DNA of 64,000 bases from Alloascoidea hylecoeti (lineage: Eukaryota), in assembly GCA_001600815.1 (NCBI GenBank), contig BCKZ01000006.1, forward strand, positions 964,137-1,028,136. The letters run 5' to 3'. The notes beneath the pieces were generated by a model, which made no database searches, was not told the origin of the DNA, and worked only from the letters and a program-made list of their open reading frames with translations. Shown piece after piece: positions 2,264 to 64,000 of this stretch; the first letter of the stretch is position 1, and every line of letters begins with the position of its first letter. The translations under genes were made by a program, and so were the position numbers.

Positions 2264-4942
2264 TTAAACACTACTAGGTTCCATACCCATGTTATCATCA
2301 TTATGATTTAGATCATTAACATCATTGAAATCATCGATAACCATTTCATTCTCATCAACATTAGGCTTCTGTACCTTATCATTTAGGGAAAAATTAAACT
2401 GTAAGAATGATTCTTTTTCTATGGCCCAAGTTAACCATTCATCAATCCAACAGCGGACTATCCACCAAGCACCAAATCCACTACCACCATTTAAAGTTAT
2501 ATCTCTTAATATACTGGTGACCAGATTATTTAAATATAGTATGACTATTCTAACATGAATATCAGAAAATCTTAATGGTATCGAGGATAAAAACTGAGCC
2601 CATTTAAGGATGACCTCTTCGGAAAATGACAAGCCAGGATGCGTTGAACTTAATTCCTTTTTAGTCTTAGAGGGTGATATTTGAGATATAATAAATGATG
2701 ACGATGACATTTTTCCATCGTGCATTGGTGAACCCAATCTTTTAATTGGGGCTTCCTTTGATTTTGGAGTAATTACGGGAGATTGATCTATTTCATTATC
2801 ATTATTGCTGTTATTACCATTTATTGAGTCCGTGGTATCATTATTAGTATCGCTCATACTTTCAACTACTGGCTTGTCTTCTGGAATACCATATTTTAAT
2901 AAATCAATAACATCTTTAGTTAAAAGTTCTAAAACAAGCTTTCTTTTTGCTTCTCCAAATTCACAATTGATTTCTCTATAAATTATCATATTAAAATCGA
3001 CCAATTTAACCCAATCTCCTAGCATAACTTCAAGATCAATTGGATTACTGAGAATCTTGCCAGCCGCCAAAGCAGTTTCATTTACCCTAACTAGACCAGA
3101 TATTAAATTTGCAAACTTTGAAATAGATTTTAACTTCATTTCCAAAAATTTATCCAACCTTTGTTTTATTCTTTCTGATGCTTCTTTATTATATCTTTCT
3201 TCTGTTTTATTAATCATCTGTTTAATCCAATTCTGTAAAATCTTTGTAAAGTTTTCAACTATGCAACATGATATGTTTTCAAGTGCCGTTAGAACCTGAG
3301 AAGGAACATTTTGCAATGCAAGAGGTGAAATCATTTTTAGCATTTCTTTATACATATCAAGATCTGAGCTAATGATCCATATATCAAATACATTTGTATT
3401 ACTATTGCAGTCACCAAACTGTTCCAAATCTTGAGCCCAAAACACTTGTTCTAAATTCCGGGTTAATGCTGAATCGGCTTTATGATATGATTCAACTAAC
3501 TGGAAAAACTTTTTAATATGTAAAAATCTTAACGCTTCTGCCAATTCATTGCAGTAGTTAGTATAAGATTCAATCAAACTTGATATTGTTGGTTGATTAT
3601 TTTGTAGTATGGTCTGTGATATAAAAGGCTCTATAGGTCGTAATACTATTTTCTGAATGACATGAGGGACCATACTGATGTTAGCAAACGCCTCAGTTAA
3701 TTTAACTTTAGGTGTCATAGAAATAAGAGGATCATATGATTTTTGAATGAATTCTCTATTGTTTAAATTCATTTGAGTAGCTAATGGTGGAGACGCAGAC
3801 CCTAATGGATTGATAAATAAACTATCGTATTGTGTACTGTCAATATAAGGTAAATCAAACAACGGCGTTATACTTCGTGTTGGTTTATGATTCTCTGGTT
3901 GGGCTTGAGGTGGTTCATTATCAATTAATCGTATTCCACAGTAATGGTATTTTGATTGCCCTCTCGTGCCCAATCTTCTAGTCGTTATATCAGGGAAAAT
4001 ACCTTTAACTAGTTTACCGAAAGCAGCCTGACCCAAAGGTTTTAGATGATTATTTGCACATATAGAAGCATATTTTGCAAATATTCGATTTCGTGGAACA
4101 GCCGAATCCATTGAAATTTGACAAGTTTTTAAAATAATGATGATTCCTAATAGTTGTTTACTTCTTTCAGTTTGATCTTGAAGGTCTATGTCATGTTTTA
4201 AGATATCCTGAACCGAATCATCAATTTTACCAAGAGCAAGATGCCGTAAGTCATCCATTGTTTCGTCATTACGGGTATTGGTGTTATGCCCGGGCGTGGT
4301 ATCATTTTTGCGATAGACCTTTCCATTAGGGGTTGTTATTATTCTTGGACTATTGCCATTGCTTATAGAACGCATAGAACCAGGCGAGTTTCCAGACAAA
4401 TGAGAAGGAATCATATGCAGTTGAATTGGGGTGTGAACAGAAGGAGAGCCAGAAGGTCCAGAAGAAGCCATGGGAGGAGAACCGTTAAAAGAAACATGAC
4501 GGGAGTGCAGTTGAAGCTGGTGGTACTCATTTGCTGTCACTGACTCCTGAATTTGGAGTTGTGAGCTGGCTGAATATGACTGGACCTGCGAAGGAACAAT
4601 ATTTATGTGCTGTTGGTGCCCTCCAACAGGAATATCCATGGACTTGTCCCGACCCCGTGGGTCATTCTGAATGCTGTCTAAATTGAAATTATATTGTTGA
4701 AGAGAAGAGACGCGAGGATCAGGACGGTTGTTGATGTCAATGTTGGTGTTAAAGTTTTCATTGGGATTCTCTTCATTATATGTGCGTTTCAATTGAGAAG
4801 TAGCGTTGTGATTGGAAGATGTGTCAATCTCCTTGGTGACATTATTGGCCATTTGGTAAATATTTGTTTCTTGCTTGTTTGGTTCTAAGTTGGCTCCTAA
4901 AGCCGGGTCTATTGCCATGCCATTTCGTAGAACTTGATCCAT
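2264..4942 (-). CDS. RFX1: RFX-family transcription factor (Rfx1/Crt1-like), 892 aa
   Basis: RFX DNA-binding domain signature AVPRNRIFAKY...LGQAAFGKLVKGIFPDITTRRLGTRGQSKYHYCGI; C-terminal dimerisation-type motif GSGFGAWWIVRCWIDEW. Confidence 0.93.
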   Translation of the reverse strand: MDQVLRNGMAIDPALGANLEPNKQETNIYQMANNVTKEIDTSSNHNATSQLKRTYNEENPNENFNTNIDINNRPDPRVSSLQQYNFNLDSIQNDPRGRDKSMDIPVGGHQQHINIVPSQVQSYSASSQLQIQESVTANEYHQLQLHSRHVSFNGSPPMASSGPSGSPSVHTPIQLHMIPSHLSGNSPGSMRSISNGNSPRIITTPNGKVYRKNDTTPGHNTNTRNDETMDDLRHLALGKIDDSVQDILKHDIDLQDQTERSKQLLGIIIILKTCQISMDSAVPRNRIFAKYASICANNHLKPLGQAAFGKLVKGIFPDITTRRLGTRGQSKYHYCGIRLIDNEPPQAQPENHKPTRSITPLFDLPYIDSTQYDSLFINPLGSASPPLATQMNLNNREFIQKSYDPLISMTPKVKLTEAFANISMVPHVIQKIVLRPIEPFISQTILQNNQPTISSLIESYTNYCNELAEALRFLHIKKFFQLVESYHKADSALTRNLEQVFWAQDLEQFGDCNSNTNVFDIWIISSDLDMYKEMLKMISPLALQNVPSQVLTALENISCCIVENFTKILQNWIKQMINKTEERYNKEASERIKQRLDKFLEMKLKSISKFANLISGLVRVNETALAAGKILSNPIDLEVMLGDWVKLVDFNMIIYREINCEFGEAKRKLVLELLTKDVIDLLKYGIPEDKPVVESMSDTNNDTTDSINGNNSNNDNEIDQSPVITPKSKEAPIKRLGSPMHDGKMSSSSFIISQISPSKTKKELSSTHPGLSFSEEVILKWAQFLSSIPLRFSDIHVRIVILYLNNLVTSILRDITLNGGSGFGAWWIVRCWIDEWLTWAIEKESFLQFNFSLNDKVQKPNVDENEMVIDDFNDVNDLNHNDDNMGMEPSSV

Positions 4943-32003: not shown

Positions 32004-34596
32004 CATAATCGGTATCATCTCAATTCAATTGCAACGTTAATGTTTATGTATTAATATTATGAATTTATGACTATCACTTATAAGCGCTTGTAATTGTAAT
32101 TAATTTGAGTATTCACCAATTACTCTTTATATATTTTTGTAAAGCTAATATTTAATAGCTATATAGTTTTATAAGATCTAGATAAGCTTAAGATTATTAA
32201 GTCCTATAAATTTAAATGTGCTCCCCTAAAGCCAATAATAGAAGTTTATAAAACCAACTTGATTATATCTCAGCTTTTGACATCTTTCGATTAAATTATA
32301 CTACCAATTATTATCATATGATCATTACATTCTATTAATATTAATTAAAGCGCTAGCTAACCATATGTTTGTGAATCTTGTGATAATTAGATATTTGAAA
32401 TAATTATGATCTGTTGGCATTTAGATGTTATAGATACACATTGTGTGATTTTCAAGCTTAGAGCATATCTAATAAAATTCTATATGATTCTACAACATTC
32501 AAATATCTTTAACAAGATGTAAGAATTCCATTTCAAGCCATTTAAGTTGATCATTTAATTAATAATCAATATTTGTCTTTCTTTTAACCTTGTTAGCTGG
32601 TATCGTTTCCCCTGACAGATGATACTTTTGTATGAACAATCATATGCATATGTAATTACATGTTGTGTTTCCTCAAATCACAACATTAAATATGCAATTG
32701 TTATTCAACTGCAGAATAGTTAACATTAATTTAAATCTGGTAAATATTCTTTGCTAGATCATAAGCGCCTTCTATACATATTCACTTATTTCTTACAACA
32801 AATTATCATCAATTCCAACAGTAATATTAAAATATGATAGTTAAAAATTAAATCATTCTTCATTAATATTTGATCCCAATTTCGACCTTAGACTTAAGAT
32901 GTCTTCTCTTTCGAATTACCAATTCTTTATTAGTATCCCCACACTATATTTCTTTGAATACGTGGCCATTTATAAAGTTTTTGCCAGCACTCCATCGTCC
33001 ATTACACTGTAATTAATTATACAGGTCTAAATAGCTACGACATGCAATGTTAAGAATTTATGAACGATCCAACAATTTCAGCTTTTTAATATTGTAGCAG
33101 TCACCTTTTAGCTTAGGATATGTAGTATAATATTAATGGATATATTATAAAATTGAAAATTTGGTCGCAATTGTATTTAATTACTTCAACTTATAATTAT
33201 GATCGCGAGCCTTAGTGCACAACTTGACAGGACCAGTAAGCGTTATTTGGGTACTTATACAGTTATTTGTAGCTTTTATATATTTAATAGAAAATAGACT
33301 AGCAGTTGATAATAATATCTAACGGCAACTATTGTATATGGAAGTTGACATTAATATTCACTGGCTTATTAAAAATGTAAAGAGATCTAATTGGTCCTAC
33401 TTAGAAGTTAGACTCCAATTTTGTAATAATAAATATTATCATCAGATAATTAAACTTTCTTCTTATCACAGATCTAGATTGTAGAGTGAACAATGAACAT
33501 TGAACAAGCATCTAGCCTAGGCCTAGGTAGTAGGTAGTAGTAAACAGTTATTATTACTTACAGTTAGTGCACTAATTATAGACCATGATGAACACCGGAA
33601 AGTGAACTCATCAATTAGCCGGCGGCGCGGTGGAAAACATAAAATTGGTCAATTGCAATAAACTTAAGTTTGGACTTCATTTACTGAACAATTGGTCTAA
33701 TAATACAATAATATAATTGATACATAGACGTAGAAATTATTTAAATTTTAGTACCATATCAGATTGTCAGTGTTTGTGTTAGTCATGGTCCATAATAAGT
33801 GCATCAACTATACCTTTTGTAATTGGTAGTTCATTTGTCTCTTGTAATATAGCTCTCCAATATCATATAATTATTTGTTATAACAATGCAAACATTTATT
33901 TTTTAGTTATAGATAATATAACAGTTTCAATGAATAGGTAATGAATAGCATAGAACTACTATGTCCTCCAACTGTTAATAGAGATTTTTTTTAACTTTTT
34001 ATACAATTCCCAATTAAAGTCTATATAACTACACCTAACTAGAAAATATGTAAATGCAGAGAAAGCTTAAGTCTCTTCTATAATTGTATATACTAGTGAT
34101 CAAGATAAAACCTCTATATCTATTTTGTCTATGTTCTTGACATATATCTTTCTTCTCTTTTATCTCTTCAAGAATTTTTTTTTACTTTACGTATAATTTC
34201 CGATTAAAACTTCCAAATAATTTAAATAGGAAATCACTCAAGTAAATTTTCTTTTTTTAACCTTTCATATATTTTCCTATTAAATTAAATAGCTAGAAAC
34301 TATGTAAATTCTGAGGAAATCTCTGAAATAAAAACCTCTTAGGTATATACTAATATAACGAGTAGAATCCACTTTCAGAATCGTATTGTAAAACTTTATA
34401 TTTACTTATGCCACTTTCCATTTACTTTTGCTATGCACTTATGCTACCAATATTATCATATGATCTATATATAACCCGGACATAGCTAGAACTATATAAA
34501 CCTTCGTTTCCAGCTATCTTGGGAGATAACTAACTTTAATAAGATTGAATACACTTTTCTTGTTCCTGTTTTGTGTCGCGGCACGTATAACACAAA

Positions 34597-34693
34597 GCCC
34601 GCGTAGCCTAATGGTTAGGGCGTCAGACTTCTATTAAAAGAGTTTCTTTGGGTTGCAATCTGAAGATTGTGGGTTCGACTCCCACCGTGGGTG
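34597..34693 (+). tRNA. tRNA-Arg(UCU) with a 24-nt intron (34634-34657)
   Basis: Acceptor stem GCCCGCG/CGTGGGT; A-box TAGCCTAATGG; anticodon stem TCAGA/TCTGA with CT-TCT-A; T-arm GTGGG-TTCGACT-CCCAC; T-runs downstream. Confidence 0.95.
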
Positions 34694-35314
34694 TTTATTT
34701 TTGTTAATTTTTTCACCTAGCTCAGGGCCTCATGGCTATGGAAAGTGATAGAACTAAAAGAAAAAGAAATTGAAGTGAAATTTTTCCTTGACTTTAATCA
34801 TAAGGAAAGAAAAGAATTAATATTAAGAGCGGTAACCGTTTTTTTGATTAGAAAATATCACAGAAGATACTATCAACAGGATGTTGTTTATCAGCATCTC
34901 AATGGAGTAAAATGATTGAAAGAGACTCCACAAGGCTTTGTTCTGAACCACTTAGGTGATATGGACAAAAAAAAAAAGAAAAATAGGAAAGATGTATACA
35001 TGACATCCTTTACTCGTATTAATTGAGTAAGAAGTTGGAAATGGTAACAATAATACTATAAAAAGTAACAACATTACTCAAAAAAGAGTGAACCTCTAAC
35101 ATTAGTAAGAGGTATTTTTGCCTAGTAATAGGTCTTTTTATTTTCACAAATTTTTGGTTGTTATGAATATAGTATTTATAGATAAAGCAGTTTAATATAG
35201 AGCCTTAATGGCCACTTGAAAAAAAAAATGGACACACTCTCTGTTTAACTGAGTATCGTTTAGGTGGTTTGCATGAGAGACCCTGAGCTAGGTGAAAAAA
35301 TTAACAAAAATAAA

Positions 35315-35411
35315 CACCCACGGTGGGAGTCGAACCCACAATCTTCAGATTGCAACCCAAAGAAACTCTTTTAATAGAAGTCTGACGCCCTAACCATTAG
35401 GCTACGCGGGC
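35315..35411 (-). tRNA. tRNA-Arg(UCU) with intron, identical inverted copy
   Basis: Reverse complement of 34597-34693, including the intron. Confidence 0.95.
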
Positions 35412-35932
35412 TTTGTGTTGTACAACTTTGAAATTGACTTCAACCCATTATATTCTACACGCTGTTTTAGCATGTGACCTAGGTTTGATTCTGATGACAC
35501 CCAAATTGACTATTTAGACGTTTGTCATTTGGCTGGGAAGCCATCACTAGAGTGCTTATGGAAAACATCTGGGGTTTTAGTGGGTATTGCCCGGGGTCCT
35601 GGATTTATCTAGAAGGGTTGAGTCTCCACACTGTTGTCTTAATTATGTAAGGCTTCGTCCGTGAATAGGATTTCCTCCTGATACTGTAAAGTTAAAAAAA
35701 AATGGGGCTTTTATCAAAAAGGCACTAGAGCTAAGAAAAAGTATTAGATTTACAGAGACACCACCACAAATATTAAATGAGATTGATTGAGGGGATTCTA
35801 ATATCTAAAAACTTGAAAAAGTAGTAAAAAAAATCTAATAAAAAAAAAATATAATTACTTTTAAGATGGTCTAGGTTCATAAGAGAAGAAAGAAGAGTGG
35901 CAAGAATACACAAAAATAAGAAGAATAGAAAA

Positions 35933-49937: not shown

Positions 49938-50789
49938 ATGAGTTGGGCTGGTTTCAAAAAGGCAGTCAGTAGAGCCGGAACATCGGTATGTCCAAAATAT
50001 TTATAGGTCATTGTTTGATTTCAAACTAACTTTCAAATCATTAAAATTCAGGTTATGATGAAAGCCGGACATGTAGAAAAAACGATCGACAAAGTTTATG
50101 AAGCTGAAGAACGAAGATACAGAGTTATGGAAACCGCCGCAACCAAATTATCAAAGGAGGCAAAAGGTTATTTGGATTCTCTTCGTGCCATGACTGCGTC
50201 ACAAACTGCCATTGCCGAAACAATCGATGCATTTTATGGTGATGCTGGTACAAGAGATGGTGCTATTCAATATTACTTGCAAGCTGTTAAAGAGTTGGAT
50301 TCAGAAACCGTCAAGGCTTTAGATGGTCCTTATCGGGAAACAGTTTTAGAACCAATCACAAGGTTTGTTGCTTATTTCCAAGATATTAATGAAGCTATTA
50401 AAAAAAGAAGTCATAAGATGTTAGATTATGATGCTTTACGAGCTAAAACAAAAAGATTAGCCGAGAAACCAAGTGATGATGTATCAAAACTTCCACGTCT
50501 TGAAAAAGAATTATCAATGGCAAAGGAAGTTTATGAACAATTAAATACGCAACTGACTACGGAATTACCTCAATTGATTGACTTAAGGGTTCCATACTTA
50601 GATCCTTCTTTTGAGGCATTGGTTAAAATTCAATTGAGGTTTTGTACTGAGTCTTATACAAGATTAGCTCAAGTACAACAATATTTGGATGCTGAATCTA
50701 GAGATGCATATGCCAATGGTCAATTAGATGTTAAAGTTGATCAAGTTTTACAACAAATGAGAGAATTATCAATCACCCAATTAGGTTAA
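49938..50789 (+). CDS. RVS161: Amphiphysin N-BAR protein; exons 49938-49985 and 50052-50789
   Basis: MSWAGFKKAVSRAGTS exon; intron 49986-50051 (GTATGT...ACTAAC...CAG); LPQLIDLRVPYLDPSFEALVKIQLRFC. Confidence 0.96.
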
Positions 50790-53348: not shown

Positions 53349-53990
53349 ATGGACACCTTGGTGCTTCAAAATGACGCTTGGAGCCCTTGTTCTTCCTGGC
53401 TATCACTAAACCTCGATCCTGCATTTCCCTTTACTCCCTCCACTATTCGGAACCGCAGGCTTTACACAATAAAAGAGGATGAAGAGGAGTTTGGCGTGGA
53501 TTATATAAGAAAACGGCAAGAACAGGAATTTGCCCGTCTTAACCAAAACAGAATACAACCGAAACCAATATTGGATCACCTGGACTCTTTTGACTCAATA
53601 TTGGAAAACCAACTGGAAAACAACAGCCTCAAAGATGAAGATCATCAACCATCTCTTCGCCACAACCGTTCTTTTGAATCATCAGATTCGGTACCCCAGC
53701 GGTCGCTTTCTTTGCCGAATTTAAACATGCATACACGAATAGTTATTAATAATAATAATAAATCATGGTCCAATTTAAAAACAAAACTTAATAAAATGAA
53801 GTTTAAATTAAAATTGCACAAATCTGATCACAATTCCGAACTTCCACATTTACAATTGCATATCTCAACATCTAGCGGTTCTTCCTCTAATGATTCATGT
53901 TCTGAAGAAGATGATAAAGAACTCTTCGATTTTGAAGAATGGTCCCCAAATAATAATTCATCTCCTCAAAATATCCACAATCCTATTTAA
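53349..53990 (+). CDS. Hypothetical protein, 213 aa, probably disordered
   Basis: ATG-initiated 642-nt ORF divergent from GRX3, preceded by a pyrimidine-rich leader. Confidence 0.65.
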   Translation: MDTLVLQNDAWSPCSSWLSLNLDPAFPFTPSTIRNRRLYTIKEDEEEFGVDYIRKRQEQEFARLNQNRIQPKPILDHLDSFDSILENQLENNSLKDEDHQPSLRHNRSFESSDSVPQRSLSLPNLNMHTRIVINNNNKSWSNLKTKLNKMKFKLKLHKSDHNSELPHLQLHISTSSGSSSNDSCSEEDDKELFDFEEWSPNNNSSPQNIHNPI

Positions 53991-56900
53991 ACTCGATATA
54001 ATGCACAATACCACTTCCGCTGAACTCCAACTTAGCTAGCTGACTAGTTAGCGAAAATTGCTATACTCACTACTTATTATATATCTCTCTTTCTCTTTCC
54101 TAAAAAAAATTATTAATCAATCAACTTGTTACAACATTTCCCCTCTTCCGAAAGCCACAAAATTGCATTGGCTACTCTCTAAGGATTTGGTTAGCTCAAT
54201 TACCCAAGCATTGTCTTTTTGGTTTTTCTATCACCACTACCAGTTTTAACGGTCCTTTCTAAAAAAAATTCATTACATTTCAGCATAATTGATCAAGCAT
54301 TATTTTTGCTAGATTCATATTCATACTCATATTTGATGTTATGTTCTTTTTTATTGTCTTATTTCCTTAATTATGTTTGTTCTTTGAATTCTTACTTAAT
54401 ACTCTTTCGACATCCATTTGATTTCTCTTCATTTATTCATATCTCTAGCTAGTGGTTTATTTGTTTTTGTGGTGCTTTTTATTCACTTGATGCCTCTCAT
54501 TATATTCTTTTTTTNATTGGAATTTAATTATCCGTCTAAGGAAAACATGACTTACCATAATTATAATTATAAATTACAATATTTCTATTAATTATGACGA
54601 TGTATTGTTTCATTTACTTTTATATTTTATATTTTATATTTTTATTTGTTTTAAAATCTATACCTATATCTCTCTCTCTATTAATGTCTAACTACTGTCT
54701 TACTTAAAATTTTTATTTATATTCTCAAATTGTGTCAATTAATTAATTTATATAATAAGGTTTTTATCGGAAACAAAAAAAAGATTCTCATGAAGTGGCA
54801 AAATTAAACAACATAACATGTGTTTCGTCGTAATATCAAAATATATGTAAAAGAAAAATTCCGATTACAAGCGGTTAATAATGTTTTAAAGTCAAGCCTA
54901 AGGCGAGTTGAAAAAAATCAAACTAAAATTTATCGAAGTTTAAAAAAAAGGCAAAGGCAAATTTAATGAGGAGGTCATTTTTGCGCACTGTATGAAAATA
55001 TTATGAATAGACGTTGTACTTTTACATGTTTTTTTAAAATATTATTGTTTTATATATACTGCCTGCTTTAACGATCTAGGATTATTGTAAATAAAGTATA
55101 CGTAATGTGCTTATATATTGCGATATTAAGTGTTCGGTAGATATTATGGTAAGCTATTATATATGGATGATCAACCACTAGTGTGCCCACCGTGATCACA
55201 TATTCACCATAAGAAACACAACGACTAAAACTTTTTATTTAACTATTTATTGCCTATGATAATAAAAGGTACTCATAGTAGGTAAGACAGGAGAATTTGG
55301 TAGTTTTTCTTATAATGATATCGATTGTATACGTAATACAATTGCAAGCATATGGCGTCTCAAAGGATGTATATAACTTATCCTATTTTATACTACTTCC
55401 ACTACCATGCCATGAATGTTTGACCCACATACATGGTAAAACTTCACCACTCAAGCATGTAGGCGTGTATGTATCTAATTGCAATTGATTTATGGATATT
55501 TTTATTCTCATGCAAGCGCTATATTCGTACAATTAATGATCTTATCCAGTTATTTAAGATGGAGGTTATATCGCGATCGAAATTCGATAAAGAATAATCT
55601 TAATTATAATTAATTAGATATTTTTAAAACGTTTAACTTTATCGTAGATATATATTTGTATATAAACCTTTTATAGGTCGAATATATAGATCAAGATCGT
55701 ATATATAAGAATTGCGTCCATAAAAACCGATTTGGATTCTTAAGGATATTAAATAATATTTAGTCTTCATCTATAAATAGAATACTTCAAAGGGCAACCT
55801 TCTGAAACGGTTGCAGGTCTACATGAGCAGAAACAATCGAAAAAGGAAGTCATATGTGATCTGCTTCTGCAGCCTCTGCAGCCTAATGAAAACGTACTAT
55901 AAAACAGAGATGATCCTGGATCTAACCAAATATTATGTATTCTTAGTAATATATTACTAAGAATGCTTATTAACGCGGGGAAATGTCCCAAGTGTGATTG
56001 TGTATGTTTCAACCTTTTAGGACATCGTCCACACCATATTTGGGGCGATGTTTCGGTTACGCTGGTAACTTGGTATCAATTCCGATCTGGATGAGTAATG
56101 ATTGGGGGAAATAGGGTTATCAGCTTACCATCAAAATTCAATTTAGCGACTTGGCATGAAATGATAACGATAAAGCCAAAAATAGAAACAGAAACAGAAA
56201 CGTAGCAAAGCAGAAGAGATAAATGATTTATATGGCAAATGTGCAATTTTGACTTTTGAGATAGAAATGTATTGAAATAGTCATTCACTTGATTGGTGGT
56301 CGGGATAAAGTTAAGTCCATATTTTGGAGGGATAGCTTTTAATTGTTTGGGATAGGTGGATGTATCGCCAACTCTTCCTTCGATGATAATTGCATTATAA
56401 TCAAATATAATCATATGAGACATATAAAAAAGATACGGACATATGGTATTTGCAATTGTATAATATTATTTTAGAACAAAAAAAAGACTTTAATTAAAGA
56501 ATATTAACATTACTTCCTATACGTATTCGGAAGTCTTATATATAACATATGAGACAAATTCAAAGCTAACAATTCTCAGGTTATCTTTTCTTTTTAAAAG
56601 TCATATTATATTGTTACACATATAATTAATATTTATCAAAATGCTGGCGCAATTAAGCTCATTATTAAATAACTTACACACTATATATAAAGCTAGTAAC
56701 AAAAACTTACTACCTAATGATAGTATTTTTGGACCTTAGAGAGAAAAAAAAGGAGCCGATGAAGTAGAGCTTGAGGTATACTAAGTTTAATTATTAATGA
56801 TATATTACTTATTGGCTTAGCTGTAAGTGGTTATATGACAGCAATTTCCCTACCTGCCGAGGCTCTATATCTGCTGAACGTTGACGAGGGTGATTGATAT

Positions 56901-58516
56901 ATTGGCTTTCTAAGCCCATTTTTTTTTGTATTGCATTAATCCAACCTGGGCTTGACCTCTGAAAAAATGAATCATGAACTCTACGTCACAATGGAAAAAT
57001 ACTGACGAAAATTCCTAGTAAATATTACTCTGATTCCTCCTAATGTGATTGATGTCGACTACATTTTGCACGGTGAAAAAAACAAAATCCAAATCCTAAA
57101 AGTAAGATCACTCCACACCGTATATCTTCACTTTGGCGAACTCATACGATTCAGTAGGGAAATTATATATATGGACTTGTATGCCCACTTTATATCCTAT
57201 GAGGTCATGGAGCCAAATAGAGACAATAGAAGAAGCAACTGCTAAGACCTTCACAGTCCTTTTGATCATCCAACTTCTAAGTTATAATTTTAAAGAATTT
57301 CTTTACACGCGCATCCACAGATATTAGTGTTGTAACCGTTTCCACTAGAGGTAAAGGAATATTGTTATTTTAGCAACATACGAAGCTTGTTATTTTTACT
57401 CATTTTGTAGTAGAAAAACCTTTACACAACTGTGGTATTGTTTAATAGCTTAATACTTCATTATAAAATACTCCTATATAATATGTTAGCTAATAGCTAT
57501 AGGACTGTCAGTTCTTAGCATTTGAGAATCGATCGATAATATAGTTAAAGCTGATTAATAGTAAGCCATGAGTATATTATTTGTAAAGGGTGAGTTTCGC
57601 GATATCCGCCAGTATAACTGCTAAAATACACTTTAAAATTTACAAATACTAAACTTTTTTCCTGATTCTTTAAAGTTTAAACAAGCATTTGGCGTCTTTC
57701 AGCTGATTAGATTTTCTGAACTCGCGACTGCTACGAAACTTACCCTTTATGAGAACTGTAAATGAAAAAAATGATATACAACAAAGTATTTTGTTGACCT
57801 AATATAAGTTATACCTGGACAAATTTAACATCAATCCAATTGAGATTTATAATTAATTGGTTTCATGCCATCATTATTATGATCATAATATATAAGGTTC
57901 AATATTCTAATATTAATTGTACCTGCATTTTCATCAGTCTGAAGTCATGATTTATTGAGTGATAAAATTTAAATATCTTATAATCAATTAAAATCAGATC
58001 TAGAGGCCCAGAAGTTGAGATATCCACACTGATTCCACATAGACCTATAATTAAATTATACATATGAATTGATCCAAAATGTAATTAAAATTAATAAAAA
58101 TTTAAGATTTGAAACACAATCTGAATCATTTATTCTTTAAATGAGACTGAGTCGGTCATTCCACTTAATTTCGGCCATGCATTGTTTACTTTCAAGATTC
58201 AAGTGGATTTATTCCGTTAGAATTCACATCAAGTACTGTACTTCCAAAAGTGGTCGAGATTAAATAAAAAGACTTTAATTTTGGTGTTTTCGATAAATTT
58301 TGACAACATAATTAACAGTTTTGGCTATCATGGAGACACATAATTAGTATTACCATTTACATTAACATTTTATTAGGGTCACCAGGTATTCGCAAATAGC
58401 TTAAAATGATTCAAAAGTAAGTGTATAGAATATTCGTTATCTGTAACTATTATTTTCGTCACCTGCGCAATGAATCTTCACTAAGATCTTACACAATGAG
58501 TCGAACTATCATAATA

Positions 58517-58528
58517 CATCACGTGATG
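58517..58528. promoter_or_regulatory. Palindromic E-box CATCACGTGATG (Cbf1/Tye7-type) upstream of the CCA1-like gene
   Basis: 12-bp palindrome 70 bp upstream of ATG 58598; TCACGTG also at 5552, 25584 and 49668. Confidence 0.4.
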
Positions 58529-58597
58529 CTGCATCTTAATTAATAATTGAACTACACCCTTAAATTTTTCTTAATTAGATTTATATACAGATTCCTT

Positions 58598-60346
58598 ATG
58601 ATAAAGAGGTGCCATTTCATAAAACCTACACGCATTCTTTCTACTTTATCACCTATAATAATTTCCAAAATAACAGCCATCAAAAGTTTGAAAAACAAAC
58701 GGGATTTTTCTGCTTCAAACTTCTTGGATCAGTTACCACAATTCAAAAAGTCCAAAATAAACATGGATTTTAGGAAATTGTCACAACCTCCAATTAAGGA
58801 AGTCAATACAAATATTGTACTTACAAAAACCGAAGAGAGTATTAAATCTCTATTATTGGACTTTGCAAATAATTTTAAAAATAATGACAATTGCAATAAC
58901 AATGACAATAACAATGACAATAAAAATGAAAATGAAGATGAAGAGAAAACACCTTTGGAATTACGTATTAGTGGTGGATGGGTTCGAGATAAATTACTTG
59001 GTTTAGAATCCACTGATATTGATATAGCTATAAATATAATGTCAGGTAAAGATCTGGTGAAATTTTTACTCGAATACATTGAACAAAATGAAATTAAGTA
59101 TCCAAAAGTAGTTGAAAAAGGAAAATCGTTTTATACGATAGCACAAAATCATGAGAGGTCAAAACATTTAGAAACAACAACAGCTAAATTATACGGAATA
59201 TCAATTGATTTTGTTAATTTAAGATCTAAAGGTTATAATGCTGCAGATGAAACCTCTAATCTCAAAATTGGAACCCCAGAGGAGGATGCCCTAAGACGAG
59301 ATGCAACATTAAATGCTCTATTTTATAATTTAAACACCTCTAATATTGAAGACTATACAGGAAAGGGAATCAATGATCTAAAAAATGGAATATTAAGAAC
59401 CCCCTTACCACCCATCGAGACATTCCGTGATGATCCTTTGAGGATCTTAAGACTAATTCGTTTTGCTTCTAAATATAATTTCCAGATTAGTGAGGATACG
59501 CTGAATGCAATGGCTCAACCCGAAATGAGAGATTACATAAAATCAAAGATAAGTAGGGAAAGAATTGGAACTGAATTTCAAAAGATTTTAACAAGTCAAA
59601 ATCCAGCTTTGGGACTTTCATTAGTTGAAGAGGTTGGATTATATAACTCAGTTTTCACTTTGAGCCCTAAATCATTAGCAACTTCTGAATCAATAATCTC
59701 TGAAACAGCACTAAGGGATATTATACAAGTCACTAAGAAAGTATTCGAATCTAGTTCATTGCCAACCGGGTTTGAGATTTTCAAAACAGATGCAGAATAT
59801 AAAAAACTTTTATGGTTTTTACTTGCTTTACAACCTTGGGGTTCAAAAGTTCCAGATAAAAATATTCAAATGGAGTTTGATTTGCTCAAACGATCATTAC
59901 CTTCAAGTAAACATGAGTATGAGTTCATTCGTACTGCAATGATCCTACAACCTCAGATTTCAAATCTTGTTACTAGAGCAGATGATAAATTCGAAAGAAA
60001 ACCAATAGCCAGAGCCATCAAAACAGCTGGCGAGAAATGGTTGATTAGTATTGCTTATAGCGCTATAATCGACATCCTACAAGGACCAAGCAATGGCAAA
60101 GATTTAGACAATATTTTATCAATATATAAATTATTTCTAGAATATGTCAACGGTCAGAAACTTGGTGACAGTTGGAAATTAAAACCATTAATTGATGGTA
60201 AATTTATTTCAAAAACTGTTGGCAGAAAGCCTGGGCCATGGTTAAATGTAACATTGAATAAGGTATTGGATTGGCAATTTGAGAATCCGGATGCGACTAG
60301 AGAGGATTGCATCTCAAACATAAACTTATTTGTCGATGAATTATAG
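58598..60346 (+). CDS. CCA1: Class II tRNA nucleotidyltransferase (Cca1 family), possibly CC-adding only; in-frame ATGs at 58598 and 58763
   Basis: Motif A GGWVRDKLLG..STDIDIAI; SKHLET; GTPEEDALRRDATLNALFYN; DDPLRILRLIRFA; KISRERIG; KPLIDG..KPGPW. Confidence 0.92.
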   Translation: MIKRCHFIKPTRILSTLSPIIISKITAIKSLKNKRDFSASNFLDQLPQFKKSKINMDFRKLSQPPIKEVNTNIVLTKTEESIKSLLLDFANNFKNNDNCNNNDNNNDNKNENEDEEKTPLELRISGGWVRDKLLGLESTDIDIAINIMSGKDLVKFLLEYIEQNEIKYPKVVEKGKSFYTIAQNHERSKHLETTTAKLYGISIDFVNLRSKGYNAADETSNLKIGTPEEDALRRDATLNALFYNLNTSNIEDYTGKGINDLKNGILRTPLPPIETFRDDPLRILRLIRFASKYNFQISEDTLNAMAQPEMRDYIKSKISRERIGTEFQKILTSQNPALGLSLVEEVGLYNSVFTLSPKSLATSESIISETALRDIIQVTKKVFESSSLPTGFEIFKTDAEYKKLLWFLLALQPWGSKVPDKNIQMEFDLLKRSLPSSKHEYEFIRTAMILQPQISNLVTRADDKFERKPIARAIKTAGEKWLISIAYSAIIDILQGPSNGKDLDNILSIYKLFLEYVNGQKLGDSWKLKPLIDGKFISKTVGRKPGPWLNVTLNKVLDWQFENPDATREDCISNINLFVDEL

Positions 60347-62339
60347 GTAGTGTAGAATTTCTTTCCATTCAATTATTATTATATACACCGTTATATCGTC
60401 AAACCATGTTACCGAATAGAATTAATTTATCGGGCACCCCAAAAATAGACTCCTATAATCTACGTAATCTCATAATTCTGATAATATAGTTGTATGTTCG
60501 ATATAATTTTGTAAATCTTGTTGGGTGTGAACTTTCTTCTAAGATTTAAAGTATCCAACACATATCTCTCTTTTTATCTCAAGATAATTGTATTAATTCC
60601 ACTTAGGGAATATTAGATGTTGATTTATGCCCTTAAACAAATATCCTCAAGGGGTGTAGGATACTTTATTAGCTCATATTTCCACCACGGTACTCAAAGA
60701 TCCTCTAAAAACTATTCTAGGTGTAATTGAGACTTCTAAGAGGGGAAAGGCATTAATTATACACAATTATTTGGTTACAACAAAGAGAGATGGGCGTCGG
60801 AAGCTTGGAGCTAGTGAACTCAATATACCCTGCATGACGACCACACCTTGGCCACAAGATTTAAAAAATTAAATATCGAACATGTATATTACCAGAATTA
60901 TGAGATCAAATGGATGTTAGCAATGCTATTTTCAATAATTTATAAGGCCTTATATATTTCTAGTTTTGCAATTCGTGGTTGAAATGTAATAATTTTGGAT
61001 GCACTATACATATGCGGATAACCTTTCTGTCTTTCTGACGGACTGAAAAATAGTTGTAAGATCAAAAAAGTATTCATACAATAATACTCTACGAGATATC
61101 AAATTTCGTGATAAACTTTAATCAGTTTAAATTTAGTAATTATAATAACCAATTTATTAATTTCTAAAACGGGTATCACTTTTTCTTTGTTCAAATGAGA
61201 TGCTACTGTTATATATTTTGATGTTAAAGGGTCATGTTGCAGCTTTATCTTGTATTTGGTAATTAGAGTGTCAATCATGCATGATTGCAAAGCTTGATAT
61301 TATGTTGACTGTAGATATTTATGTACCTTTATATATGAGAATTTCAAATCTGCAGAAATCAAATTTATAAAATATAACTTATAGTTGAGGGTATAAATAC
61401 CCCATAACCGGTGAGTGAGACTGCCACAACATATATATCATTCGTGACCAACCAAAACTATATCTTCACAAATATGCATATAATTAATAATTAATATGAT
61501 CATAATAGACTATTGATGTAATTATAACTTTGCACGATATTTCAAAAATTTCAGAAGCATTTACACTCCAAAATATTTTAAACTATCTCAAATGATGATC
61601 TTTTCATCTTCAATAAGAAACTGTATATTGATAATTTTTCATTTTCTAGGTTATTTTATAAATTTTATATGTCAATCTGATCTGGTTCATAGCACATCCA
61701 ATTTGAGATCTAAATGTCGGCTCAATTCTTAATGCCCGCCATTGAGATTTGTAAAAATTCGCACATACGGTTCCAGCATCTATAAATAATACTTCTATGA
61801 AGATAAAAAGGTACAAATCTAATTATATTTTTCCATTTAAGGTGCATATAACAGTATACATAAATGCTACTTGACTGACTGTCCTTATCTACGTTATAAT
61901 TACAGAATTAATGATCTGGTAGCTAGTCATAAATGAGAGTGACGTTTATAATGTGGTATATAATGATTCCATCTATAATGTAGATGGTGATATATCTGAG
62001 TAGTTTTAGTAACATGGTATTTGTACCATTGTAAAATTATGATAACGATCGCAACTAATATACTATACATAATTATAACCTCATACAGGTATACAATTCT
62101 GTAATGACTGTTATTATTAATAATATAATATATTATAACTATGTACTTGTATCCCATAATAATGATGAAAAAACGTTTTATTTCTTTTAAATACAATCAA
62201 TTTTCAATTATGATATCGCTACTCATATATGATTATAACATTCCATATTTGACATGAGTTGAGTTTAAGCGTAAAAGAGGACTGCTTCCGAGATTTAATA
62301 GCTATACTTGGACGGGTTTGGGCAGAATCAGAAAGCAAG

Positions 62340-62367
62340 TCGGATCGGATCGGATCGGATCGGATCG
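62340..62367. repeat. (CGGAT)n pentamer repeat, about 5 units
   Basis: Read directly. Confidence 0.85.
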
Positions 62368-62961
62368 ACTATCGATGCGACCGATTATATTATCAGTTTA
62401 GATTGTAAGCCACCGTTAAATCTAATCTTTCCATGTATCTACTCATTAAAATATTTGTAGTTAATTTAAGTCCTGATTGAGAGCATTGTTTCGCATTCGT
62501 TTTACCCCGTGATTATAAATTTAAATTTATGCCTAATTTGATGATCCAGCAAGCAAGATATTTTCCGTAACAATATCAGCAAATTAGATAGTTATATATA
62601 ATCCTGTAACTGATGTAATATTTTATTGGTAATCGTATCTTCGTATGAGGCTTACTCCTTTTTAAGAATTTTAGTCAGTTACTTCATCATAAATTTAAAG
62701 CTTATATAAGACCTTAAAGAGTCACAATATTGCAATACACATATTTATAAATTTATGCATTATTACAAGTAAATAGTTATTATAAACAACAGTTTACCAG
62801 CTGTCTTGTTTACAACAGGTCCTAATATGTAATATATATGCATTGAAACTATGAGAGATTATGAAGTTTAAGTTTATAAAATAATAATACAGTAATAAAT
62901 GTAAATAAGAGTTATAAATTTAAACTTAACAACTATGATTAATTAATGTTGAATAAATGGC

Positions 62962-64000
62962 TTATGGATATGATGTAAATGATCCATATTCATTATCTTC
63001 GTATCCATATTGAATGGGTCCCATATAGTCTATATGACTAGTATCATGCAGCCCATTAAAAAAGGTTCCATTAAGATTTGAGTCTTCCAGAGTATTCAAT
63101 TCATAATTGGCGCTTAAACTTGTGGTCTCTATAGGTGTTGAGGGAAACAATCGGGAAGGATCAATATCTGTGATGCTATCTAATGGATTGTGTTGAATAT
63201 CAAAATCATTCTGATAGTTCAAACTTGTACCGAACGTATGATTCTCGGCTGTAGGTGTGGTAGTGAAGTTCTTCATCTCTTTTTTGGGTTGTAAATTAAC
63301 CTCTTGTTGTGTATGAGCGTAAGGTACTTCAGTCTCTGAAAAATAACCATTAAACCCATTAGAGGGAGATCTCATTTGCAATTGAAATTCATTCATATAT
63401 ATATGATTACTAGACGTTGAATCTTCGTCATAGGAGTTATTTCTAGTGCCATGTGAACTATCAACTGCTATATATTTTGGTGGGAATTTTGGTTTCATCC
63501 GGGCTTTGTTGTTGACATCTCGTCTTGAACTACCATAGCTACGGCTAGTACTGGAACCTCTGGATAAAGGAGGCCTTTTAGAAATACAACAATTTGTATG
63601 ATGACCAAGAAAATTAGGTACATCTGATGGTGAGAACGAAATGGAATTGGAATTGGAATGAACATTCATACAACCCTCAAGTACAGCTGGATCTGTTAAA
63701 CTAATACTATCAGATCTTGGGTCATTTGAAAAGGTTGGTGTTATTGGTGATATCAGTAACCCTTTTGAGTAGTTATTAAGATTTGAATCAAAGGATGAAA
63801 TGCGATTAACCGATAATGGCACTATATGATCCAAGTCCTTCCCATTGTGTATGCTAGCTTGTGATTCTTCAAACTCTTGTTTCAAAGATCCTGCAATTGA
63901 ATGACTATCAGGTTTATAATTATGATTGAATTTATTTAGGTTGTTGGAAAAACTTGTTTCTGTTCCATGTCTTGGGGAGATATTTTCGTTCCCAATTATC
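62962..64000 (-). CDS. 3' part of a gene running off the window end; Ser/Asn-rich, unassigned
   Basis: The frame of ORF 62962-63885 stays open to the window edge; no start in the window. Confidence 0.75.
   Translation of the reverse strand, partial: IIGNENISPRHGTETSFSNNLNKFNHNYKPDSHSIAGSLKQEFEESQASIHNGKDLDHIVPLSVNRISSFDSNLNNYSKGLLISPITPTFSNDPRSDSISLTDPAVLEGCMNVHSNSNSISFSPSDVPNFLGHHTNCCISKRPPLSRGSSTSRSYGSSRRDVNNKARMKPKFPPKYIAVDSSHGTRNNSYDEDSTSSNHIYMNEFQLQMRSPSNGFNGYFSETEVPYAHTQQEVNLQPKKEMKNFTTTPTAENHTFGTSLNYQNDFDIQHNPLDSITDIDPSRLFPSTPIETTSLSANYELNTLEDSNLNGTFFNGLHDTSHIDYMGPIQYGYEDNEYGSFTSYP

Follow-up and report, generated by a model that had tools for sequence, protein, structure and literature searches.

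Can a yeast tRNA nucleotidyltransferase that keeps its catalytic motifs, and has replaced the residues thought to switch it from adding C to adding A, still complete the CCA end of its tRNAs? This question is raised by one gene in a 64,000-nucleotide stretch of DNA from Alloascoidea hylecoeti (contig BCKZ01000006.1 of assembly GCA_001600815.1, positions 964,137 to 1,028,136 of the forward strand), which is referred to as a whole as the window. The product of this gene, P0002, had been described in an earlier note, made from the letters of the window, as a CC-adding enzyme, so that a second A-adding or complete CCA-adding paralog would have to exist elsewhere in the genome. The reading we favour, to which we give an even chance of being right, is that P0002 would be a CC-adding enzyme whose A-addition elements were lost by point substitution independently of those of Schizosaccharomyces pombe Cca1, and that the terminal A would be supplied by a second enzyme, probably a paralog of the type of P0003, the nearest relative of P0002. 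What we infer in this reading is the CC-only activity, the presence of a partner in this genome and the identity of that partner as P0003.

The peptide that raised the question is encoded at 59207-59275 on the plus strand. The segment translates to DFVNLRSKGYNAADETSNLKIGT, residues 204-226 of P0002, inside an intact 582-residue open reading frame (ORF), and its minus strand contains a stop. The earlier note had read here RxK in place of RxE and DETS in place of SRxP, in a loop of unchanged length, and this is what the translation gives: R-x-[E/K] and GT are separated by 13 residues, the same spacing that the homologs show. The comparison string that the note gave for Saccharomyces cerevisiae Cca1 is the loop of the Saccharomyces arboricola homolog P0121.

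The replacements stand alone among the relatives of the protein. A search with P0002, of which the best 120 matches were listed, returned 119 non-self proteins, and a regular expression for the loop matched 118 of these as stored, the unmatched one being P0004, a fused plant protein. All 118 have R-x-E followed by Y-x-x-x-S-R-x-P; P0002 alone deviates. In a MAFFT alignment of P0002 and P0003 with 163 homologs (the stored matches of the searches with either protein, without P0004), the acidic E of the basic/acidic (B/A) motif, the loop S and the loop P are each present in 163 of 163 homologs and the loop R in 162 of 163, at positions where P0002 has K211, D217, S220 and E218, respectively. The form SRIP is also found in the plant enzyme, in the alignment to PDB entry 9kma. 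P0002 is off consensus at 11 of the 107 columns with at least 93% conservation; E211K, S217D, R218E and P220S all fall within 10 residues and are its only deviations at invariant or near-invariant columns. The remaining seven occur at columns where conservation falls to 154-160 of the 163 homologs; several of these changes are conservative (T>S, F>L, K>R, G>A). As judged from this alignment, the clustering of the four losses appears to be more than chance would give.

Around this cluster the protein is that of its family. Motifs A, B and D, which the earlier note had called intact, are canonical, as are C and E; the patterns found include GGxVRD...DxD for A, RRD for B and [E/D]DxxR for D, together with those of motifs C and E (Table 1). 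P0002 matches the Pfam families PolyA_pol (PF01743, 9.5e-27, 94.3 bits against a cut-off of 23) and PolyA_pol_RNAbd (PF12627, 2.5e-09), and its top matches among PDB sequences are S. pombe cca1 (9ns2, 5.1e-81) and cca2 (9ns4, 1.4e-80), followed by the Arabidopsis CCA-adding enzyme. An AlphaFold model built on 65 sequences has a mean predicted local distance difference test score (pLDDT) of 83.4 and a predicted template modelling score (pTM) of 0.83. In a Foldseek search this model found the A. thaliana CCA-adding enzyme 9kma first (E 1.8e-25, template modelling scores 0.67/0.75) and then bacterial and human CCA-adding enzymes; the S. pombe structures 9ns2 and 9ns4 were not among its Foldseek matches. 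On these matches and the model, P0002 belongs, at full length and with the head-neck-body-tail fold, to the class II tRNA nucleotidyltransferases of ancestral eukaryotic type. Its best named matches are Saccharomycotina and the trees agree, as the earlier description of a budding-yeast enzyme had it. Residues 211-220 are coil in the model, with a mean pLDDT of 56, and such low-confidence coil fits a flexible loop. A beta-hairpin has been predicted in the loop of S. pombe Cca1 (PMC7014341); none was seen in the P0002 loop, for which the model gives low-confidence coil.

The N-terminus of P0002 looks like a mitochondrial presequence, and is predicted as such from its sequence: its first 35 residues include nine K or R and no D or E. 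Methionine occurs in residues 1-130 at positions 1 and 56 only, and in canonical yeast homologs, too, a basic N-terminus is combined with an internal Met. In S. cerevisiae the isoforms of Cca1 arise from alternative ATGs. The S. cerevisiae enzyme is active in nucleus, cytoplasm and mitochondria (PMC10275265, citing Wolfe et al. 1996). We note also an N/D-rich low-complexity insert that P0002 and P0003 (residues ~52-105) have in common, at the same site, after the first helix and ahead of motif A; it is absent from canonical homologs and is a shared derived character of the pair.

Table 1. Features of the P0002 gene and the tRNA genes of the window (positions are those of the window)
Feature	Position	Strand	Observation
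tRNA nucleotidyltransferase gene (P0002)	58598-60346	+	uninterrupted ORF, 582 aa from first ATG, without need for an intron
N-terminal 55-residue extension, presequence-like	58598-58762	+	ends at second in-frame ATG, 58763 (Met56)
N/D/E-rich low-complexity insert NNFKNNDNCNNNDNNNDNKNENEDEE	58868-58945	+	just N-terminal of motif A; translation
Motif A GGWVRDKLLGLESTDID	58973-59023	+	two catalytic Asp; conserved columns all canonical
B/A motif position	59222-59230	+	R209-S210-K211 in place of R-x-E
Flexible loop GYNAADETSNLKI	59231-59269	+	Y213 retained; D217-E218-T219-S220 in place of S-R-x-P
Motif B RRD	59294-59302	+	canonical, then fungal A-T
Motif C (hinge) EDYTGKGINDLKNGILRTP	59348-59404	+	conserved columns all canonical
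Motif D, amino-acid template DDPLR	59429-59443	+	canonical
Motif E KISRERIGTEFQK	59546-59584	+	canonical
tRNA gene with intron, anticodon read as TCT	34597-34693	+	Rfam RF00005, 60.3 bits
Second identical tRNA gene, inverted	35315-35411	-	Rfam match and sequence

What the four losses might mean can be judged from the published determinants of A-addition, which the earlier note had given as they stand in the literature. According to the sections of Erber et al. 2020 (PMC7014341) drawn on here, the B/A motif brings the tRNA-CC end into place for the final addition and the flexible loop adjusts the template of motif D from CTP to ATP; fungal CCA-adding enzymes of the ancestral type have the common loop consensus Yxxx(x)SRxP, and for the human enzyme a pairing of the loop arginine with the acidic template position in motif D has been put forward. 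S. pombe Cca1, which is proven to be CC-adding, is without the loop consensus and has RHH at the B/A motif; its A-addition was regained only with both elements replaced, restoration of RHE alone being insufficient (PMC7014341, the latter citing Reid et al.). Similarly, Acanthamoeba Ntr3 was predicted to be CC-adding from its deviations in the B/A motif and loop, and was confirmed as such in vitro (Erber et al. 2020b, PMC7947759). P0002 has neither the R-x-[D/E] nor the Yxxx(x)SRxP by which a complete fungal enzyme is recognised. It has the marks of the S. pombe Cca1 kind, in that the loop length is retained while the conserved loop residues and the B/A acidic residue are lost, and its motifs C and D appear still compatible with catalysis, as that kind requires. 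At the level of the sequence, then, the CC-adding function proposed in the earlier note is supported by the loss of both elements in an otherwise intact protein.

We propose that P0002 would add C74 and C75 and no longer A76. By analogy with published enzymes, its catalytic core (motifs A-E) would bind the tRNA 3' end and CTP as usual. E211K would replace the acidic residue that normally positions the tRNA-CC end, and S217D, R218E and P220S would replace the S-R-x-P that normally retunes the template in motif D for ATP instead of CTP; with both elements replaced the switch to ATP would fail, and another nucleotidyltransferase of that cell would consequently have to supply the terminal A. The best candidate for this partner would be a paralog of the P0003 type, which retains RFE and SRIP.

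That the substitutions arise from a sequencing or assembly artefact, or that the gene is a pseudogene, we regard as highly improbable. The loop-coding sequence is identical in contigs of runs X1, X3 and X4, three data sets that belong to three studies, and in part in X5, from the study of X3; the 582-codon frame is unbroken, every catalytic motif is present and the fold model is confident. Contigs of X4, which has the same organism label and comes from another sample and study, cover 59063-60483 with 0 differences. They are without cover over ~58881-59062, and X5 covers two short parts only; we treated these as gaps of fragmented contigs. From run X3, a wood-decay metagenome, a 6123-base contig spans 58400-58880 and 58952-60500 and differs at 3 of 2101 bases; the stretch between, 58881-58951, is N-rich and was skipped as a repeat in the contig comparison. 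Its sole difference inside the ORF, 59077 C>T, is synonymous (TAC>TAT, Tyr160). The P0002 gene is maintained: its ORF is intact, its motifs are canonical, its model is confident and the sole in-gene population difference is synonymous. About 110 bases downstream of the stop codon, at 60453-60493, lies a short dispersed repeat, of which six or seven further contigs per run match just the ~30-40 bases; the summed contig depth of run X1 rises there from 60 to 431 in the last bin, and contigs have a loose end to either side. Summed over the runs of this organism, the contigs amount to ~25 million bases.

The tRNA genes of the window bear on the need for a terminal A. Both end in ...GGGTG, followed by TTTATTTTT, such that an encoded CCA is absent in 2 of the 2 genes, and an A-adding activity must therefore exist in the cell. 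By our reading of the Rfam alignment both have the anticodon TCT (Arg) with a 26-base intron. The ARAGORN label tRNA-Asn (att) was rejected, as that alignment puts a 26-base insert after the start of the anticodon loop. The two genes sit in the arms of an inverted repeat (34585-34731 and 35277-35423; 147 nucleotides, 99% complementary, 545 nucleotides apart).

A candidate source of the A is P0003, which retains RFE and KSRIP. With 43% identity it is closer to P0002 than any other of the best 120 matches listed from ~15 billion proteins, in which the next reaches at most 42%, and the nearest relative of P0003 is in turn P0002; no other member of the clade is among the best 120 matches of either search. 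A quick maximum-likelihood tree of 41 sequences joins the two as sisters with a Shimodaira-Hasegawa-like approximate likelihood ratio test (SH-aLRT) value of 98, support marks on quick trees with long rows being less trustworthy, and their end branches are 1.0 for P0002 and 0.97 for P0003, as against a median of 0.48. P0003 is off consensus at 13 columns, and just two of these, both weakly conserved, overlap the 11 of P0002. Alignments with the S. pombe pair, read by eye, place Cca1 off consensus at all four key columns of P0002 (H, N, S, N) and Cca2 on consensus at the same four (E, S, R, P). Four of the columns at which P0002 deviates also deviate in Cca1 only, and one in Cca2 only. Nine of the 13 deviations of P0003, on the other hand, are at columns that also deviate in the A-adding Cca2, five of them in Cca2 only (numbered as in P0002: A144, I181, A236, R267 and T275); the changes I>L and RRDA>RRDF are identical, and 0 of the 13 are at columns deviating in Cca1 only. 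Two independent subfunctionalisations would leave a reciprocal pattern of this kind. A preference in bit score for Cca1 or Cca2 was set aside as uninformative, since canonical controls favour Cca2 too (Cca2 minus Cca1 is -1.4 bits for P0002, +52 for P0003, from 296 vs 244, and +1.9, +13.8, +33.2 and +63.2 for four canonical controls).

P0003 has a longer form, P0122, which comes from an ORF call that may be incomplete. The two differ in the called start and at one near-invariant residue of the C-terminal ENPxGT motif, which is A in P0003 and the canonical P (159 of 163 homologs) in P0122. This looks like polymorphism between strains, much as the two forms of Rvs161 in this organism differ by a single Q/K exchange. 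Scans of JGI metagenomes gave no confirmed locus with P0003 and P0002. The source labels (P0002, P0289, P0290 and P0440, NCBI and Logan; P0003 and P0439, NCBI only; P0122 and P0123, Logan only) were not counted as evidence, nor was the one-residue difference between the copies from NCBI and from Logan, seen for both Rvs161 and P0003/P0122, which fits one source for all of them.

Is P0003 then a paralog in this genome, or the ortholog of P0002 in another species? We hold the former to be slightly better than an even bet. The BAR-domain protein Rvs161, encoded in the window at 50055-50789 (+), speaks for the former: its best non-self match is at 84%, named Dipodascales species are level with it and there are none between 84% and 100%; its 90% cluster holds two strain variants of this organism only, and a close neighbour was not seen in its tree. 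For a species pair with full-length RFX proteins that are 43% identical, as are those considered below, an Rvs161 identity above 84% would be expected. Moreover, two species each with a split system should contribute four proteins to the collection, and two are seen. Rvs161 also shows that the acceleration of P0002 is, on the identities compared, gene-specific. The window Rvs161 shares 82-84% identity with its counterparts in Trichomonascus ciferrii and Nadsonia (81% between the two), whereas P0002 is 36.5-36.6% identical to the nucleotidyltransferases of these two yeasts, which are 48.5% identical mutually.

There is a serious if clearly less probable alternative, namely that P0002 is the sole tRNA nucleotidyltransferase of this yeast and makes a complete CCA, its loop and B/A motif having been rewired into a lineage-specific family, with P0003 the single ortholog of a related species. 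Several observations are better suited to this alternative than to a CC-adding P0002, or otherwise weigh against the latter. P0002 retains the presequence-like N-terminus and second in-frame ATG, the dual-start layout of the sole yeast Cca1, and is well conserved outside the loop and B/A motif. The N-terminus of P0003 and P0122, by comparison, is not presequence-like (3 K/R and 2 D/E in the first 35 residues), and mitochondrial tRNAs would lack A76 if the partner were confined to the cytosol. The overlaps in deviating columns with the two S. pombe proteins involve few columns, counted by hand on printed alignments. The composition of P0003 is strongly unlike that of P0002: the fractions of the residues F, Y, M, I, N and K (FYMINK) and G, A, R and P (GARP) are 0.463/0.095 in P0003 vs 0.354/0.177 in P0002, with 14 window proteins having a highest FYMINK of 0.354 and a lowest GARP of 0.136. 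The catalytic domain of P0003 has a FYMINK of 0.475, the homolog maximum being 0.374, and at sites where the two proteins differ the residue with AT-type codons is in P0003 124 times vs 59 in P0002. Several of the A-adder-like changes of P0003 (G>N, R>K, P>T, A>S) are of the sort that AT pressure would produce by itself, and part of the reciprocal pattern could have this origin. A second window protein taken as an unrelated test case, the RFX-family DNA-binding protein encoded at 2264-4942 (-), likewise has one stand-out full-length relative at 43% identity, P0290 (818 aa), which shares its N-terminal motif and scores 577.6 bits, the next match scoring 302.2. P0290 implies either a related species in the database or old duplicates of several genes in this yeast; the simplest cause is a related species, in which case P0003 would be an ortholog, with one gene per species. 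Finally, loop families are phylum-specific and mutually incompatible, and the communication between loop and template is not understood (PMC7014341, section 3.4), so P0002 may have a rewired but working loop; E211K and R218E, seven residues apart, could for instance be a compensating charge swap.

These points have to be set against what such an enzyme would be required to do. As the sole enzyme P0002 would have to add A76 with a loop devoid of every residue thought necessary in fungi and plants (perhaps by means of E211K/R218E), or the A would have to come from an enzyme outside the family, and we hold this to be less likely than not. E, S and P are changed in 0 of 163 fungal homologs and R in 1 of 163, and the plant enzyme retains the motif as SRIP. 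The two eukaryotic enzymes that were assayed with both consensus elements lost, S. pombe Cca1 and Ntr3, are CC-only (PMC7014341; PMC7947759), and so is the Salpingoeca rosetta enzyme, which has loop changes alone (PMC7014341). Since motif D is unchanged (DDPLR), R218E would repel rather than compensate. A sole, essential enzyme would not be expected to evolve ~2x faster than its homologs while Rvs161 is not accelerated, and an Rvs161 from a sister species was not seen among the matches, in the 90% cluster or in the tree. As for composition, P0290 is ordinary (FYMINK/GARP 0.315/0.167), hence P0003 is an outlier in whichever genome it resides, which points to relaxed constraint and not to a different genome. 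The composition of P0003 as proof of foreign origin is likewise weakened, given that P0290 has the same database signature and a normal composition. In a further scenario, which we consider fairly improbable, P0002 is CC-only and a complete CCA-adding paralog, perhaps P0003, exists as well; P0002 would then be dispensable or have a side role such as repair, as has been proposed for Ntr3, and would not be one half of an obligatory split system. Paired enzymes are indeed not always split: two bona fide CCA-adding enzymes have been reported in Dictyostelium (PMC7432833), and in Acanthamoeba a CC-adding and an A-adding enzyme occur beside two complete ones (PMC7947759). P0002, however, is not decaying. 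Its other deviations are confined to the less strictly conserved columns, it keeps its dual-start N-terminus and its one coding polymorphism is synonymous; of the two proteins it is P0003 that has the compositional drift and the substitutions at near-invariant columns of the catalytic domain.

The surroundings of the gene are sparse. Its flanks at 53990-58598 (4.6 kb) and 60346-62962 (2.6 kb) contain no ATG-started ORF of at least 200 aa and a single one of at least 100 aa (115 aa, 56076-56423, minus strand). The window as a whole, with ~31% guanine plus cytosine, has 14 distinct ORFs of at least 200 aa in 64 kb, a spacing that is loose for a budding yeast. The Rvs161 ORF starts with MMKAG... 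at about residue 18 of homologs that begin MSW(N/A)GFKKA..., making a short first exon and a 5' intron likely.

If P0002 is indeed a CC-adding enzyme with a partner, it would apparently be the first of the S. pombe Cca1 kind in budding yeasts, and a natural replicate of the S. pombe event in which the same four residues were lost to different replacements. Such a replicate would allow a sharper view of the loop positions without which the CTP-to-ATP switch cannot work. The features that define an A-adding enzyme were named as an open question by Erber et al. (PMC7014341, end of section 3.4), and the comparison with P0003 would offer candidate A-adder positions: the I>L change before the partner strand of motif A, RRDA>RRDF and the end of motif C. 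If P0002 should instead prove to act alone in this yeast, the current model of A-addition would have a counter-example, and the rule of B/A motif plus SRxP would not be obligatory in enzymes of the ancestral type.

In the papers drawn on here, split CC- and A-adding systems are described among eukaryotes in Schizosaccharomyces, choanoflagellates and Acanthamoeba (PMC7014341; PMC7947759), and the duplication of S. pombe is reported not to extend beyond Schizosaccharomyces (sections 2.1 and 3.3 of PMC7014341). No split system in budding yeasts is described in the literature searched (titles and abstract openings), in which Cca1 is treated as a single essential enzyme, and the excerpts of Betat et al. 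2015 (PMC4538823) mention none. Compared with S. cerevisiae Cca1 and the other fungal CCA-adding enzymes, represented by the 163 homologs, P0002 is of the same family and has the same domain order, length class, catalytic motifs and N-terminal layout with alternative in-frame starts; it is 35-42% identical to them and retains none of E, S, R and P. Acanthamoeba castellanii Ntr3 resembles P0002 in having changes in the loop as well as in its B/A motif, but its loop is deleted and, unlike P0002, it is thought to be decaying beside complete enzymes (PMC7947759). The CC-adding enzyme of S. rosetta, confirmed in vitro, also has loop changes; it is of the alphaproteobacterial type and has retained its B/A motif (PMC7014341).

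The closest parallel is S. pombe Cca1 (9ns2, 9ns3). Both proteins are class II enzymes of the ancestral eukaryotic type with motifs A-E intact, both have a full-length loop from which S-R-x-P was lost, and both lost the acidic residue of the B/A motif (RHH in S. pombe vs RSK in P0002). Activity and partner are proven for the fission yeast enzyme and proposed for P0002. The replacements in the loop differ, NSSN in S. pombe vs DETS in P0002, and P0002 groups with budding-yeast sequences, its origin being independent of that of S. pombe Cca1.

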